Source: Candidatus Staskawiczbacteria bacterium (GTDB lineage: Bacteria; Patescibacteriota; Minisyncoccia; Minisyncoccales; Staskawiczbacteraceae). From it: a stretch of 64,000 nucleotides of DNA. Shown here in pieces: positions 1,604 to 40,878 of this stretch. The stretch covers positions 21,836-85,835 of the forward strand of contig JAPLYZ010000006.1 in assembly GCA_026395295.1 (NCBI GenBank), read 5' to 3'. Both the position numbers and the translations under genes were made by a program. The notes below the pieces were generated by a model. That model was not told where the DNA came from, searched no databases, and was given only the letters and a program-made list of their open reading frames with translations. Positions within the stretch are counted from its first letter, which is position 1. Each line of letters starts with the position of its first letter.

Positions 1604-1846
1604 ATGGATATAAAAGAAATAGATGTAATCAGAGAGCTTAAATCAACAAATAAGCTTTTAAGGGTAATCGTTTCCCTACTTCTTAAAAGGAAGGAAAAAG
1701 ATTTGCTTCCCTTGAAGGAACAGGTTGAGATTTTGTATGATTCTGGACTAAAACCAATTGAGATTGCTGAAATAATCGGTCGAAGCAATCTCTATGTTAA
1801 TAAAGAAATCTCCGGCATTAGAAAAAACAGGGAACAAAAAAAATAA
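1604..1846 (+). CDS. Mini HTH protein, paralog 1 of 4
   Basis: 80 aa. C-terminal HTH-like segment GLKPIEIAEIIGRSNLYVNKEISGIRK. The stop lies 1 nt before the next ATG. Confidence 0.7.
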   Translation: MDIKEIDVIRELKSTNKLLRVIVSLLLKRKEKDLLPLKEQVEILYDSGLKPIEIAEIIGRSNLYVNKEISGIRKNREQKK

Positions 1847-1847
1847 T

Positions 1848-2018
1848 ATGGCAAAGAAACAAAAACAAGAGAATACAACGGATGAACTGCTTCGAGATAT
1901 CTTTATCACTCAGCTTGGTTTGGCGGGGCTTACTCAACATCAAATAAGAGAAATTGTTGGGGTGGATATGCACCGCGTAAATCGTATTGTAAAACATTTT
2001 AAAAAATTAAACAAATAA
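1848..2018 (+). CDS. Mini HTH protein, paralog 2 of 4
   Basis: In-frame ATG at 1848 (MAKKQKQ...), chosen over the track start at 1794, which overlaps paralog 1. HTH-like GLTQHQIREIVGVDMHRVNRIVKHFKK. Confidence 0.65.
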   Translation: MAKKQKQENTTDELLRDIFITQLGLAGLTQHQIREIVGVDMHRVNRIVKHFKKLNK

Positions 2019-2019
2019 C

Positions 2020-2193
2020 ATGGAAAATAGTAAATTAGAGGAAAAAGTAGAGATTTTAGTAGAGTTAACGCGTCACAACTTGGTTCTCTCATTGTTCATG
2101 AGTGGAGCCACACAAGATGATATTTGCAAAAGTTTGCATATGAGTAAAACAAAGGTTGTAGACATGTTGAAAGGAGTTAAAAGAGATAAATAA
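2020..2193 (+). CDS. Mini HTH protein, paralog 3 of 4 (57 aa, below the track cutoff)
   Basis: Manual translation gives MENSKLEEKVEILVELTRHNLVLSLFMSGATQDDICKSLHMSKTKVVDMLKGVKRDK. It fills the gap between its neighbours exactly (1-2 nt spacers). Confidence 0.6.
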   Translation: MENSKLEEKVEILVELTRHNLVLSLFMSGATQDDICKSLHMSKTKVVDMLKGVKRDK

Positions 2194-2195
2194 TT

Positions 2196-2429
2196 ATGGA
2201 GCAAGAAAAACTTTCGGAAATATCAAAAAAACTTAATGTGCTCATTGCCCTGTCAATCAAAAATTTAGGGGGAGAAAAAGATTTTGGCAACAAGGGACGA
2301 AAGCAAGGTGCTGGCGAATTAGCACGCTATCTTTCAGATTTTGACATAGATTCTAAGGATATAGCAGAGATATTGGGTGCTCCTCTACAAAGCATAAGGA
2401 CATTATTAACGCCTAAAAGAAGAAAATAA
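2196..2429 (+). CDS. Mini HTH protein, paralog 4 of 4
   Basis: 77 aa. HTH-like DIDSKDIAEILGAPLQSIRTLLTPKRRK. Confidence 0.7.
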   Translation: MEQEKLSEISKKLNVLIALSIKNLGGEKDFGNKGRKQGAGELARYLSDFDIDSKDIAEILGAPLQSIRTLLTPKRRK

Positions 2430-8623: not shown

Positions 8624-9892
8624 ATGATACATAAACAAGCAGAAAAACCTTTATTAAATGAAACCGAAATGACTTTCGGCGGACTTGGCATTGCTCCAAA
8701 AATTCTTGATGTAATTTCAAAATTAGGATTTAGCGTCCCAACTTCCATACAACACAAGGCAATTACGCCTGCCATTGAAGGCAAAGATATTATTGGAATA
8801 GCTCAAACCGGCACAGGAAAAACTTTGGCATTTGGAATTCCCCTGATTCAGCAAATTTTGAAGGTTGGAGGACGAAAGGGTAAAGGCTTAATTATTTTGC
8901 CGACTCGCGAACTGGCCCTGCAGGTTGACGAAGTTATGCAAAAAATTGGCAGGTCATTTGGCATAAAAACAGTGGTTTTAATTGGAGGCGCTTCAATGTA
9001 TAACCAAGTGTGCTTAATAAGAAATAATCCTCATATTGTCATTGGAACCCCGGGAAGAATTATTGATCACATAGCTCAAAGAACCCTGAGTTTGAGCGAT
9101 GTCTCGGTGCTAATTTTAGACGAAGCCGACAGAATGTTTGACATGGGTTTTGCTCCACAAATAGCCAAAATACTTCAAGTTGTTCCAAAAGAAAGACAAA
9201 CAATGCTGTTTTCAGCAACCATGCCCGATGGCATTGTAAAAATTGCCAGCCATCATATGAAACTTCCGGTAAGGGTGGAAATAGCCAGGGCCGGAACCAC
9301 TGCTGAAAACATTGAGCACGAACTTTTTGTTGTTAAAAGGGACCAGAAATTTCCGTTGCTGAAAAAATTGCTTGAAGAGTACAAAGGAAGCGTGCTAATT
9401 TTTTTAAGAGTTAAGCATAACGCCAGAAAAATTTGCGATGGTTTGCGAGGCGTTGGAATTTCTTCAGCTGAAATACATTCAAACAGGTCTCTGGGCCAGA
9501 GAAAAGAAGCCTTAGAAGGCTTTAAGTTGGGCAGGTACAGGGTGCTTGTTGCAACTGACATTGCCTCGCGCGGGATAGATGTGAAGGGCATTGAGCTGGT
9601 TATCAATTATGACCTGCCGGAAAATCCTGAAGATTATGTTCACAGAATTGGAAGAACCGGCAGGGCCGGCATGACAGGCAAAGCAATTTCTTTTTGTTTG
9701 CCTGACCAAGGAGATAAAGTAAGGGAGATAGAAAGATTAACGCGGCTTTATTTGCCCATTGTAAAATTGCCGGACCTTTCGGCTCACATGGGTAAGCCCA
9801 TTAGCGCTTCAAATAGTTTTGAGAGAAATAATTATCCTCCGCGCAGGTCTAGGCAAACTAACCGTTTTAGTTATGCAAAAAAAAGATACTAA
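8624..9892 (+). CDS. DEAD-box ATP-dependent RNA helicase
   Basis: Q-motif, AQTGTGKT, PTRELA, DEAD (LILDEADRM), SAT, HRIGRTGRAG. Confidence 0.95.
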   Translation: MIHKQAEKPLLNETEMTFGGLGIAPKILDVISKLGFSVPTSIQHKAITPAIEGKDIIGIAQTGTGKTLAFGIPLIQQILKVGGRKGKGLIILPTRELALQVDEVMQKIGRSFGIKTVVLIGGASMYNQVCLIRNNPHIVIGTPGRIIDHIAQRTLSLSDVSVLILDEADRMFDMGFAPQIAKILQVVPKERQTMLFSATMPDGIVKIASHHMKLPVRVEIARAGTTAENIEHELFVVKRDQKFPLLKKLLEEYKGSVLIFLRVKHNARKICDGLRGVGISSAEIHSNRSLGQRKEALEGFKLGRYRVLVATDIASRGIDVKGIELVINYDLPENPEDYVHRIGRTGRAGMTGKAISFCLPDQGDKVREIERLTRLYLPIVKLPDLSAHMGKPISASNSFERNNYPPRRSRQTNRFSYAKKRY

Positions 9893-37103: not shown

Positions 37104-37697
37104 CTATTTAGACTTTTTGAGACCATTGACCTCTCTTTCCAATTTTTTAACATACTCTTCCAGTTTTAGGGTTCTTTCTGAAAATTTTTCTTCAAGGTTT
37201 TTCGTGTGTCCTACAAGGGTTTCGGCAATGATCATCATATCGGTAATGTCTTCAATCGCGAGAAGTATAATGGGGGGAAAAGCCTTCGAAGTGGCCCCGT
37301 CATCTTTGGCAAAATGAATTTGGCGGGCATTCAGAACCATTACCTTATGTCCTATAAAAGGAAAGTCGTGGATAACTTCAAAACCCTTAAAAAATGTATT
37401 TTTAGGCAGAATATCTTCAAGAAGTTTTTTCAAAGCGGGAATATTCCATTGACCATCTCCAAGTTCGTATACAACCTTGCTTTCCGTATCTGCCGGCTCT
37501 ACGTGAAATGTCCTGTAAAAAGGTTCATTGGCAACCAGCACTCGAAAATCCTTGTCAAGAACCAAAACAGGTTCTCGCACAACGTCTACTACGGTTTTAA
37601 TATATGACCATGATCTTTCCCACAGTTTTTCGAAAAAATCAGCGCTTATAACTGTTTGATTTATTTGGGTATCTATTTTCATGTTTTTTATTTTCAT
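37104..37697 (-). CDS. Stand-alone PAS-domain protein with a C-terminal coiled coil
   Basis: REPVLVLDKDFRVLVANEPFYRTFHV...VMVLNARQI...ILLAIEDITD. No output domain. Confidence 0.7.
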   Translation of the reverse strand: MKIKNMKIDTQINQTVISADFFEKLWERSWSYIKTVVDVVREPVLVLDKDFRVLVANEPFYRTFHVEPADTESKVVYELGDGQWNIPALKKLLEDILPKNTFFKGFEVIHDFPFIGHKVMVLNARQIHFAKDDGATSKAFPPIILLAIEDITDMMIIAETLVGHTKNLEEKFSERTLKLEEYVKKLEREVNGLKKSK

Positions 37698-37957
37698 AAC
37701 ATTACGCCGAAAGAGAGTTTAAATTATTACAAGCTAAAAAACGGCGTGTGTCCGTATCTATCATATTGATAGTGTGCTATGCTTAGCTCCCCCGGCACCT
37801 TACAGTAATATTGTAATGTAAACGTAACTAAATATTCGTGAAATCATGCTTATTATTTATAATTTGTAATATTAGTGTAATATAATCTCAGTTTGTACGG
37901 CGTAATTTATCTGACCTAAAAAGGTCTAAAAAATATATCGCTACGCTATGTAAACTT

Positions 37958-38475
37958 ATGACAGAAACACAAGAAACACAATTAAGAGCAATATTGACTT
38001 CGGCTCACCTCAACTACGAGAAGAAGCTTAATTTACATGCCTGTTTTAAGCTGAGCGACTGTTCTCTTGGAGAAGATTTGGTGCAGGATACTTTTTTGAA
38101 AACATGGATTTACCTTGTTAGGGGGGGAAGATCGATATAATGAGATCCTTTCTCTACCATATATTAAATGACCTCATTATTGACGAATATAGAAAACACA
38201 AGACACATTCTTCTTTAAACAATCTTATGGAAAAAGGTTTTGAGCCAACAAGCGCCGGTAGCCCCGAGCGTTTTTTTAACTTTCTGGACGGCAAGGCCTC
38301 ACTTCTTTTGATCAGTCGGTTGCCAGAAACATATCAGAAGGTTATGCATATGCGATATATCCAGGAACTATCAATAAAAGAAATGTCGCTGATTACAGGA
38401 CAATCAAAAAATAGTATTACTGTGAAGGCTCATAGGGGGTTAAAAAAATTAAAAAAATTATATGAAAATCAATAA
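37958..38475 (+). CDS. ECF-type sigma-70 factor split into two frames at a G7 run (needs a -1 frameshift or one extra G)
   Basis: Part 1 (37958-38140) ends ...DLVQDTFLKTWIYLVRGGRSI*. Part 2 (38140-38475) starts MRSFLYHILNDLIIDEYRK (region 2) and ends with a region-4 HTH (LSIKEMSLITGQSKNSITVKAHRGLKKL). The G run is at 38121-38127. Confidence 0.75.
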
Positions 38476-39661
38476 AATAGTAAAATTTTATTTTGGAATA
38501 GGTATATTATTATTTTTATCTGTGTTATGGACGACCCCCATTTTCGCTGATAAAAGTCCGGCTGGTTGTACGGGTAGTGGTTTAGGAATTAACCTATATG
38601 CAGACGTGCAGGAGGTTCACATTGGCGATACTATTTTTTACAGCATAGATGTTTTTAATGGCGCTAACAGCGGGCCTGTTGTTTGCGATGCTTCTGAAAT
38701 TCAAGCCTCTATTGTCACCCCTGATGGCATAACTCATCCCATTGCACTGCTACGAACATTACTATTAAGCGGCCAAACTGATTCTTATCCAAATGTCATA
38801 CCCTATACTGCGATGGCACAAGATGTCAAAACTGATGGAACATTAGCAGCTACCGCGAGTGATACGGGAAACATTCATCAAAACGACACTAACAGCCAAG
38901 GAGGTGGCAATCAGGGAGTAAATGTGAGAGTTATTGGCGTTCTCGTTGCGCCTCCTTTGAACCAGCCGAGTGGAGGGGGAGGTGGTGGCGGAAGCGAAGT
39001 TAGTTATAACCCCATCCCGCCCGTTGCAGCTGTTGCTCCGCCAGTAACGTCCACTTTGATACCTGTAATACCGGTAAATCCGTTGCCTCCACCCATTGTT
39101 AAAGAAGAGATTGTTGCGGTTCCGGTGAAATTGCCGAACACAGGATTCTCTCCAGAGAATAAGGATATTTTATGGAATAAGGCTAACGAAATTATCCCAC
39201 AGAAGCAAGCTGGCACAGATAATTCGAGCCGCCTTAAAATTCCAAAAATAAATGTTAATGCGGTAGTTGGCAATGCGGGTCTTACTAATAAAGGGTCAGT
39301 AGGTGTACCCAACAACGGGACAGATGTGGCATGGTTTGATGCTGGTCCGCGCCCCGGAGAAACAGGTACGGCAATTATTGTTGGGCATTACGGTCCGTGG
39401 AAAAATGGACAAGGCTCGGTGTTTGATAACTTGAATAAATTGAAAAAAGGGGACAAATTGTATGTAGAAGACAGAAAAAGCGCGACTATTGTTTTTATAG
39501 TGCGCGAAATTAAAAGTTACGACCAAAATGCAACCACCCCGGAAGTGTTCAATTCAAGCGATGGAAAAGCTCATCTTAACTTAATAACTTGCCAAGGAAT
39601 TTGGAATCAAGCGCAAAAAACTTACTCCAATCGACTTGTTGTGTTTGCTGATAAAGAATAG
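38462..39661 (+). CDS. Secreted DUF11-like domain / Pro-Gly linker / LPNTG motif / class F-like sortase fusion
   Basis: Signal/TM peptide. The sortase core has IVGHYG (His), LNLITCQG (Cys) and NRLVVFA (Arg). An internal VKLPNTGFS precedes the catalytic domain. The gene overlaps the end of the sigma gene by 14 nt. Confidence 0.75.
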   Translation: MKINKIVKFYFGIGILLFLSVLWTTPIFADKSPAGCTGSGLGINLYADVQEVHIGDTIFYSIDVFNGANSGPVVCDASEIQASIVTPDGITHPIALLRTLLLSGQTDSYPNVIPYTAMAQDVKTDGTLAATASDTGNIHQNDTNSQGGGNQGVNVRVIGVLVAPPLNQPSGGGGGGGSEVSYNPIPPVAAVAPPVTSTLIPVIPVNPLPPPIVKEEIVAVPVKLPNTGFSPENKDILWNKANEIIPQKQAGTDNSSRLKIPKINVNAVVGNAGLTNKGSVGVPNNGTDVAWFDAGPRPGETGTAIIVGHYGPWKNGQGSVFDNLNKLKKGDKLYVEDRKSATIVFIVREIKSYDQNATTPEVFNSSDGKAHLNLITCQGIWNQAQKTYSNRLVVFADKE

Positions 39662-39776: not shown

Positions 39777-40277
39777 ATGGATGAAGCAAAAGAAAAATAT
39801 GTGAGACCCGGTTGGGACGAATATTTTTTGAATTTATTAGAACCAATAGCCAGAAGAGGGTCCTGTGACAGAGGAAGAAGCGGATCGGTTATTGTAGGTC
39901 CAGGTCATACAATTATAGCAACGGGATATGTTGGCGCGCCTCCTGGACAACCGCATTGTGATGATGTTGGGCACTTGATGAGAACAGTTATTGATGAAAA
40001 TGGAAATCAGTCCCAACATTGTGTTAGAACTTTGCATGCTGAAGAAAACGCAATTTTACAGTGCGCAAAAGACGGAATAAAGGTTGAAGGGGCAACTATT
40101 TATTGTAAAATGGTGCCTTGTTATAACTGCGCAATGAGAATTGTTAGAGTGGGAATTAAAAAAGTTGTAGCTCAAAAGAGATACCATGCCGACGGGTTAT
40201 CTCTAAAATTGTTTAAAGATGCCGGCGTTGAGCTGGCGGTAATTGATAATTCAGTGGAATCATATGACAAACAATAA
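39777..40277 (+). CDS. dCMP deaminase
   Basis: HAEENA and PCYNCA zinc motifs, about 166 aa. Confidence 0.9.
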   Translation: MDEAKEKYVRPGWDEYFLNLLEPIARRGSCDRGRSGSVIVGPGHTIIATGYVGAPPGQPHCDDVGHLMRTVIDENGNQSQHCVRTLHAEENAILQCAKDGIKVEGATIYCKMVPCYNCAMRIVRVGIKKVVAQKRYHADGLSLKLFKDAGVELAVIDNSVESYDKQ

Positions 40278-40878
40278 AGATGACGAGCAGGTTTTAGTTG
40301 TAAAATCTGATATAATTTTTGGCAATGGAAAATGGCAAGGGTTGAAAACTGATAATTTAGATTATTATGTTGATTTGATAAAGAAAAATTATGAGTTTCG
40401 TCGTCGGGGCGACGTGGAAGAAGATTCAACTTTTCAACAGATAATTCCGTACGTTATTTTCAATTTTAAAGAAAAATACTTTCTTTACAAATATTTGCCA
40501 AAAACCACAGAGAAAAGATTGGTTGACACATATCAGCTGGGCTTTGGCGGACACATAAACCCGATTGATGGTCAAGAAGGTAATATTTTGGAAGTTGGAA
40601 TGATGAGAGAGTGGTTTGAAGAAGTAGATTTCAAAGGGAATATCTTAGAAAAAAAGTTGATAGGCATTTTAAAAGATGATTCCATGTCGGTTGAAAAAGT
40701 TCATATAGGATTGGTTTATAATTTCATAGGCGACAGTCCAAATATCTTCGTAAAAGAAACGGAAAAGATGGAGGGAAGGTTAGTTGACTTAAAAGATATC
40801 GGAAAACACATTGAAGGCAACTCGGGAATTTGGGTCAAAATAGTCTACAACGAATACCTGAGAAAATTAACAAAATAA
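40264..40878 (+). CDS. Nudix-like hydrolase
   Basis: Degenerate Nudix box GFGGHINPIDGQEGNILEVGMMREWFEEV. The ATG at 40264 is preferred. Confidence 0.6.
   Translation: MTNNKDDEQVLVVKSDIIFGNGKWQGLKTDNLDYYVDLIKKNYEFRRRGDVEEDSTFQQIIPYVIFNFKEKYFLYKYLPKTTEKRLVDTYQLGFGGHINPIDGQEGNILEVGMMREWFEEVDFKGNILEKKLIGILKDDSMSVEKVHIGLVYNFIGDSPNIFVKETEKMEGRLVDLKDIGKHIEGNSGIWVKIVYNEYLRKLTK

Follow-up and report, generated by a model that had tools for sequence, protein, structure and literature searches.

A one-nucleotide deletion at a seven-guanine run divides a conserved ECF-type sigma factor gene in a lineage of Candidatus Staskawiczbacteria

We have analysed a 64-kb stretch of DNA from a Candidatus Staskawiczbacteria bacterium (NCBI assembly GCA_026395295.1, contig JAPLYZ010000006.1, positions 21,836 to 85,835; G+C content 39.0%), hereafter referred to as "the window", in which a gene for a sigma factor of the extracytoplasmic function (ECF) type is divided between two open reading frames (ORFs) at a run of seven G residues (G7). 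The results show that the two ORFs are pieces of one sigma gene, that the frame is broken by a single-base deletion, and that this deletion is genuine and reproducible across samples. The comparison with related loci indicates that the split is specific to one lineage. The locus carries a lineage-specific, population-fixed 1-nt deletion in a conserved sigma gene, and on balance we regard the result as probably a null or hypomorphic allele of recent origin, which is the simplest reading. Such a plain fixed frameshift mutation, absent from the list of explanations offered by a preliminary description of this DNA, is the most likely option of all those considered below.

One sigma factor gene in two reading frames

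The elements of the divided gene are as follows:
37958-38475, + strand: the whole ECF-type sigma gene, interrupted by the 1-nt deletion; the repaired product has 172 aa and aligns end to end with intact homologues
37958-38140, + strand: ORF1, the N-terminal fragment (60 aa) with the helices of sigma regions 2.1-2.2, annotated as "hypothetical protein" (NT155_00955 / MCX6723727.1), without a Pfam match when taken alone
38121-38127, + strand: the G7 homopolymer, site of the frame break or possibly its scar, the same in 7/7 contigs read as DNA
38122-38128, + strand: the formal heptamer G_GGG_GGA, which fits the slippery pattern but is not conserved in relatives and lacks a stimulator
38122-38137, + strand: the sole stop-free interval for a shift from frame 0 to frame -1, by direct reading of the sequence
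38140-38475, + strand: ORF2, the C-terminal fragment (111 aa, frame -1) with sigma regions 2.3-2.4 and region 4

The + strand reads A-G7-AA at 38120-38129 (A at 38120, the G run at 38121-38127 and AA at 38128-38129), which is where the preliminary description had placed the break; re-reading of the sequence confirmed all its coordinates, peptides and frame arithmetic. ORF1 starts with the ATG at 37958 and in the zero frame crosses the run as TGG ATT TAC CTT GTT AGG GGG GGA AGA TCG ATA TAA, so that its product ends with ...WIYLVRGGRSI at the TAA stop (38138-38140). ORF2 extends from the ATG at 38140 to 38475 in the -1 frame relative to ORF1; the stop and start codons overlap in the pentamer TAATG (38138-38142), and the ATG corresponds to the conserved Met62 of the sigma family. 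The -1 frame is closed by a TAG codon at 38119-38121, directly before the G run; together with the TAA in frame 0 this restricts any productive change from frame 0 to frame -1 to the interval 38122-38137. One base inserted within this interval gives a protein of 172 aa with the junction ...YLVRGGKIDIMRSFLYHILNDLIIDEYRK... / ...YLVRGGKIDIMRSF..., and the proposal that a -1 slip or an extra base would yield a sigma factor of normal length is thus correct. The C-terminal peptide of the stub is TWIYLVRGGRSI, and the predicted peptide across the repaired or trans-frame junction is TWIYLVRGGK. In formal terms the heptamer G_GGG_GGA at 38122-38128 matches the X_XXY_YYZ pattern of a frameshift site when read in the zero frame, and ORF2, which overlaps ORF1, occupies the -1 frame. 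In the public annotation ORF2 appears only as an 82-aa version starting at 38227 (NT155_00960 / MCX6723728.1), and an exact protein look-up found no record of the 111-aa product.

The G7 run had been called rare for this genome. It is indeed the sole run of at least seven G or C residues in the window, yet about 1.3 G7 positions are expected from the base composition, and the counts of G5 and G6 likewise agree with the mononucleotide expectation. The run is therefore not statistically unusual, the point being its coincidence with the break, and the counts give no sign of evolved hypermutable tracts.

Comparison with protein families supports the view, put forward in the preliminary description, that ORF1 and ORF2 are halves of one ECF-type sigma gene. 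Taken singly, ORF1 has no Pfam match and ORF2 has one to sigma-70 region 4 only, while a match to Sigma70_r2 (residues 37-82) appears exclusively in the fused protein, with a marginal score of 23.8 bits, just under the gathering cut-off of 24.0; the fusion junction (residue 57/58) lies inside this match. The NCBIfam superfamily model TIGR02937 (sigma70-ECF) spans the junction, covering residues 28-167 with 49.0 bits against a cut-off of 42.9, and Sigma70_r4_2 scores 39.7 bits against 25.7 on the repaired protein, whose matches in the PDB are SigW, SigL and SigH/E. A search of 5.8 billion proteins returned 2,208 homologues of the repaired protein, of which the best 120 are all continuous, 162-209 aa long (mostly about 170 aa) and derived from Patescibacteria/Paceibacteria, the closest being 82% identical. 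When 26 sequences are aligned, the repaired protein is collinear throughout, its junction YLVRGGKIDIMR is the family consensus, and G57 and M62 are invariant.

Alignment to SigW of Bacillus subtilis (5WUQ) places the break between the helices of regions 2.2 and 2.3. In agreement with this, an AlphaFold model of an intact orthologue (P0001), used for secondary structure only owing to its low confidence (mean predicted local distance difference test score 54), shows a helix at 35-55, a loop at 56-58 and another helix at 59-81. The repaired protein thus has the domain content of ECF-type (group 4) sigma-70 factors, but in the window the two domains do not share a single continuous ORF, the frame being broken at 38121-38129.

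Reproducibility, distribution and origin of the deletion

Homopolymers are classic places for insertion or deletion errors, and a sequencing or assembly error concealing an intact frame had been listed among the explanations. This possibility is effectively refuted by independent contigs. Sixteen contigs encode exactly the 60-aa truncated product; most of them are Logan assemblies from different sequencing runs (ERR15302169-224, SRR20698650), and one of the 16 is consistent with the NCBI contig of the metagenome-assembled genome (Candidatus Staskawiczbacteria) itself, where both pieces are labelled as hypothetical proteins (NT155_00955 and NT155_00960). The exact product of the downstream sortase gene is present on 14 contigs. 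Seven contigs of 3.0-7.6 kb, from separate Logan assemblies (ERR15302169, 170, 174, 178, 187, 224 and SRR20698650), were read as DNA: every one matches the window with 100% identity and carries G7 (7/7). No intact allele more than 82% identical to the repaired protein was found among the 5.8 billion proteins, Logan-derived ones included, and no assembly in the database gave an in-frame ("ON") consensus for this allele.

Frame errors at homopolymers are also not a general feature of the window. It contains 334 homopolymers of at least 6 nt, yet ORFs of 646-1,244 aa remain uninterrupted. A screen of these 334 runs yielded 19 junctions, and those checked (27382, 38451, 41768, 1822/1836) proved to be ordinary gene boundaries, leaving no other homopolymer-split gene among them. 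We therefore consider an artefact scarcely credible: relative to intact orthologues the frame is truly disrupted.

The comparison of orthologs that the preliminary description had recommended was carried out on 166 related loci: the species-representative genomes of GTDB and the metagenomes of JGI contributed 80 each, with protein identities of 55-81%, and the closest orthologues a further 6. The sigma gene is continuous in all of them (166/166), and none has the split; in clustering at 90% identity, the 60-aa and 82-aa truncated products are each alone in their own cluster. The codons of the R/K-G-G-K motif at the position of the break vary freely among relatives. At the 140 motif sites that could be located by pattern, the longest G run is 2 or 3 in 115 cases, 4-6 in 19 and 7, in frame, in 5, whereas a run of 8 occurs in none. 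The five in-frame G7 runs (L026, L073, L123, L164, L165) are spelled AAG GGG GGG AAG or CGG GGG GGA AAA, and the gene is unbroken in each. Among the closest orthologues the motif reads AGG GGA GGA AAA (L172), AGA GGA GGA AAA (L173), AGG GGA GGG AAA (L174, L175), AGA GGA GGG AAA (L176) or AGG GGA GGG AAG (L177). G-rich synonymous choices thus recur at this motif without breaking the gene. The uniform continuity of the 166 loci and the variety of their codons mean that neither the slippery site nor the two-frame arrangement is evolutionarily conserved.

The same comparison bears on the idea of a functional two-piece sigma factor, in which the 60-aa fragment and a C-terminal fragment reinitiated at TAATG would reassemble on RNA polymerase. 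Such an arrangement has a natural precedent in SigO-RsoA of Bacillus subtilis, where sigma function resides on two polypeptides (PMC7826278), and it would agree with the location of the break in a short loop between two helices (according to the low-confidence AlphaFold model and the SigW alignment) and with the overlap of the ORF1 stop with the ORF2 start at the conserved Met62. We consider it very improbable: the split in the window lies inside sigma-2 and is a singleton, unique to one clonal lineage, with no relative split; the TAATG overlap is an automatic consequence of the conserved codons ATA ATG; and public gene callers passed over the ATG at 38140, recording only the 82-aa ORF from 38227.

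Three in-frame ancestors can reach the sequence of the window by a single deletion, namely G8 followed by A2, G7 followed by A3, and G4-A-G3. The first route leads from AGG GGG GGG AAG (G8) by loss of any G, the second from AGG GGG GGA AAG by loss of an A, and the third from AGG GGA GGG AAG by loss of the interrupting A; the last arrangement is present in L177 with identical flanking codons. If the third ancestor is the true one, the G7 run was produced by the deletion and is not its cause. The nearest orthologous gene, only about 78% identical in DNA, is too distant to reveal the ancestral codons and so to rank the routes; on general mutational grounds slippage in a G8 run that had formed by synonymous drift seems the most likely of them. 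Two statements of the preliminary description thus stand in part. One extra G does restore the frame, but it is not the sole repair, as three single-deletion ancestors fit; and the gene is indeed interrupted at the G run, but the run may itself be the scar of the lesion and not a pre-existing slippery heptamer.

Recoding, switching or loss of function

Compensatory or programmed recoding, also on the earlier list, would have ribosomes slip -1 on G_GGG_GGA, or RNA polymerase add a G, to supply a low but sufficient amount of full-length sigma. The zero-frame heptamer is formally suitable, the interval for the shift is tightly bounded by stops, and the -1 product corresponds exactly to the consensus. 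The search for a downstream stimulatory structure, which the preliminary description had called for, revealed nothing above background. The 103 nt after the site fold with -8.2 kcal/mol (z = +0.53 relative to dinucleotide shuffles), and the 50 nt after the site with -5.9 kcal/mol, compared with a genome background of -6.6 +/- 3.9 kcal/mol, 56% of random windows being at least as stable. A scan of spacers of 3-10 nt combined with lengths of 30-100 nt gave at best a 4-bp stem or -8 kcal/mol. For some short windows z-scores of -3 to -5 were obtained, but these were rejected as artefacts of the near-zero energies of shuffled AT-rich 30-mers; the stems involved have 4 bp (-3.6 kcal/mol). Thus, pseudoknot-free folding detected no hairpin above background 5-9 nt downstream, the region of a typical hairpin or pseudoknot stimulator, and the site has no Shine-Dalgarno-like element upstream. 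The site has no Rfam match at E <=1, and a tRNA scan of the window found no tRNA genes.

Shine-Dalgarno motifs are essentially absent upstream of the 42 ORFs of at least 180 aa in the window. With virtually no Shine-Dalgarno usage, a stimulator of this type, or reinitiation driven from the G run, is unlikely. The idea that the G run serves as a Shine-Dalgarno sequence for reinitiation at the ATG at 38140, prompted by Sharma et al., was rejected on the same grounds, the 42 trusted genes being essentially devoid of such motifs. As a separate observation, the leaders are A/T-rich and in several genes (starts at 8624, 11946 and 25443) a TATAAT-like hexamer precedes the ATG by 7-13 nt, which suggests leaderless or Shine-Dalgarno-independent initiation in this genome.

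To our knowledge, the bacterial examples of transcriptional slippage involve long runs of A or T (9 or more), none being documented for G7. A review of such cases cites runs of about 9 A or T (PMC5009743). As regards ribosomal shifting, a study of all 64 heptamers in Escherichia coli found GGN A-site codons to be among the less shifty, motifs without a stimulator to reach at most about 10 times a background of about 0.05%, i.e. well under 1%, and G_GG.G_GG.U without a stimulator to have the lowest value of all (PMC4066793). The established programmed -1 sites (dnaX, IS3/IS911, the phage tail chaperone G/GT) share with the window an X_XXY_YYZ motif in the right frame and a downstream ORF in frame -1. 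Unlike them, the site in the window has neither a stimulatory structure nor an upstream Shine-Dalgarno element, it has a weak GGN A-site codon, it is not conserved (0/166 related loci are split, and heptamer and frameshift are absent from all relatives examined), and its zero-frame product is a 60-aa stub without a plausible role. Closer precedents are provided by slippage-compensated indels: very low-level frameshifting partly rescues a ±1 G indel in the 7-G run of herpesvirus thymidine kinase, and poly(A) indels of insect endosymbionts (Buchnera, Blochmannia) are rescued by transcriptional slippage (PMC5009743). These cases likewise combine a homopolymer indel with an otherwise intact gene and, in the endosymbionts, a small reduced genome, and small amounts of corrected product are conceivable for the window too. 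They differ in that long poly(A) runs are involved in the endosymbionts and eukaryotic ribosomes in the herpesvirus. In sum, neither programmed frameshifting nor slippage is supported, and we consider sufficient recoding of either kind improbable, while trace spontaneous correction at G7 may take place.

Apart from the deletion, the gene shows no decay. At 68 alignment columns at least 93% of 121 sequences agree, and the repaired protein deviates from them nowhere (the members of the family have 1.2 such deviations on average and 5 at most). Its 6-17 lineage-unique substitutions are similar in number to those of its five nearest relatives (8-13), and there is no acceleration of rate. The further decay expected of a young pseudogene is thus not seen, there being neither an extra lesion nor relaxed constraint, and the absence of any damage beyond a single deletion points either to a recent lesion or to a locus still under selection. 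The region upstream of the gene comprises two further elements:
37104-37697, - strand: an intact, divergently transcribed gene for a 197-aa PAS-like / coiled-coil protein, a conserved neighbour of the sigma gene
37698-37957, between the two divergent genes: an intergenic region of 260 nt, aligned with five relatives

The 197-aa gene adjoins the sigma gene in 109/160 related loci, with up to 86% identity (including L088, L091, L092, L093 and L097). Its product has a weak PAS_8 match in the N-terminal part (19.6 bits against a cut-off of 21.8), a C-terminal coiled coil and no NCBIfam match, and is a candidate dedicated regulator or anti-sigma partner in a sigma module widespread in bacteria of the Candidate Phyla Radiation (CPR). 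In L177 (1881-2000, minus strand), where sigma is intact, it is the gene for the PAS-like partner that is split, by an extra A (GGC TTC GAA A GTA ATT, corresponding to ...GFEVIHD... in the window); this may be a sequencing error, as the contig name suggests a long-read assembly. The intergenic region contains the conserved blocks ATTATTACA, GTATCTAT, GTGCTATG, TGTAAT and GTAATATTnGTGTAATA, every one of which is kept in the window, although the relatives sharing them are only about 75-80% identical in coding DNA. It includes repeated GTAAT motifs, with GTAATATTnGTGTAATA holding two GTAATA copies about 10 nt apart, and an extended -10-like element (TGnTAATAT). By their sequence, these blocks look like operator or promoter elements.

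The course of events that we consider probable would be the following. The deletion hit the codons of the conserved loop motif R-G-G-K between the helices of regions 2.2 and 2.3, left A-G7-AA and put the remainder of the gene in the -1 frame, so that standard decoding would yield the 60-aa N-terminal stub and at most, in addition, a separately initiated C-terminal fragment. Full-length sigma would then not be made in meaningful amounts, and the allele, null or strongly hypomorphic, would be fixed in every sampled population. Its youth is suggested by the lack of other decay in the gene or its regulatory region. We infer both the loss of sigma function and the recency of the lesion from sequence data.

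The closest analogue in kind is mucA22, which resembles the allele of the window in being a single-base frameshift in an ECF sigma module with a short G/C context; its site is a run of five G:C pairs. mucA22 of Pseudomonas aeruginosa is a one-nucleotide deletion that truncates a component of such a module and is common or fixed in natural populations (PMC6546240). It differs in hitting the anti-sigma, which turns the regulon on, whereas the allele of the window hits sigma itself, so that the regulon would presumably be off. The allele is in this respect a fresh instance of a well-known type of event.

Several points weigh against a plain loss. The sigma family has more than 2,200 homologues and its conservation across Paceibacteria is high (60-80% identity); with no sigma paralogue in the 64-kb window either, complete loss would be somewhat surprising. 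The intact state of the gene, its partner and the intergenic motifs also fits continued selection acting via reversion or slippage. In Mycobacterium tuberculosis, 7-nt homopolymers are known to serve as reversible switches (review PMC13104627). The rate of mutation from G7 to G8 can be elevated, and in herpesvirus thymidine kinase very low-level frameshifting partly rescues an indel in a 7-G run (PMC5009743).

A rival explanation is reversible phase variation, which the preliminary description had also suggested: replication slippage between G7 (OFF) and G8 (ON) would let a minority of cells express sigma, as a bet-hedging switch. A tract within an ORF that sets the frame is present, G7 being out of frame and G8 restoring the exact consensus protein in the coding region, and no other damage is present in the gene, in its partner or in the promoter region. 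In the homopolymer phase variation of Neisseria, Haemophilus and Campylobacter, and of 7-nt tracts such as that of glpK in M. tuberculosis, a ±1 change in a G/C tract likewise toggles the frame. A length of G7 is at the short end of the range of hypermutable tracts, and thus borderline. Unlike in those systems, there is no length heterogeneity at the consensus level (G7 alone in the 7 contigs read as DNA, the same truncated product on 16 contigs), and the intact allele is absent from the protein database; the tract is not kept in relatives, which mostly have runs of 2-3 G, and G/C runs are not enriched in the window. As the sampled contigs are all clonal, they provide no evidence of switching over time. 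We regard phase variation as unlikely. A broader formulation, in which G7 keeps the conserved sigma mostly OFF but rare escape occurs, either because a subpopulation reverts from G7 to G8 or through trace decoding slippage, strikes us as rather unlikely too. We prefer the fixed frameshift mutation.

Neighbourhood and significance of the allele

Downstream of the sigma gene lies one further feature:
38462-39661, + strand: a 399-aa sortase-fusion gene, whose start overlaps the 3' end of the sigma gene by 14 nt

This overlap, together with the lack of a terminator-like site between the two genes, makes their co-transcription plausible. The 399-aa protein begins with an N-terminal signal or transmembrane segment, which is followed by a beta-rich domain and then by a linker with Gly7 and Pro-rich sequence. 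Next comes an internal sorting motif, LPNTG, at residue 224, and last a sortase domain of class F with the cysteine motif NLITC. A substrate-like module and an enzyme are thus found in one polypeptide, and no hydrophobic anchor follows LPNTG; judging from this layout, self-processing of the fusion is conceivable. The genes downstream of sigma vary among relatives, and synteny with the sortase is not conserved: in L172 (1108-1248), L174 (3043-3180) and L177 (3080-3220) a DUF5670 gene (45-46 aa) is located directly 3' of sigma, and the presence of the sortase fusion where close orthologues have DUF5670 indicates that the neighbourhood was rearranged in this lineage. Sortase domains are encoded near sigma in 21 loci, mostly upstream on the other strand, and it is in L016 alone that a homologue of the fusion's N-terminal domain lies directly downstream of sigma. 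The suggestion that the regulon includes the downstream sortase fusion has therefore little support, as the neighbourhood is lineage-specific and the conserved neighbour is the divergent 197-aa gene upstream; a frameshift toggling a regulon that contains the sortase is speculation.

Two further observations concern other parts of the window. Five of the seven separate Logan contigs end within the 16-nt interval 40374-40389, inside a 211-aa ORF (40243-40878), which suggests strain-variable or repeated sequence there. At 1604-2429 (+ strand) four small tandem ORFs of about 57-80 aa have a similar helix-turn-helix-like C-terminus (e.g. ...IAEIIGRSNLYVNKEISGIRK and ...IAEILGAPLQSIRTLLTPKRR), and appear from their sequences to be an array of paralogous mini-regulators.

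If the allele were switchable or leaky, it would be the first example of a homopolymer-controlled conserved regulator in the CPR, and a mostly-OFF G7 switch or throttle on a core regulator would represent a mechanism not yet described in Patescibacteria; nothing that we found requires such a reading. The case illustrates how the synonymous codons used for a conserved Arg-Gly-Gly-Lys motif can form an unstable G run or be converted into one. Its main value is practical: NT155_00955 and NT155_00960, both listed as "hypothetical proteins", together represent one ECF-type sigma gene, whose frameshift is genuinely present in the population and not an error.

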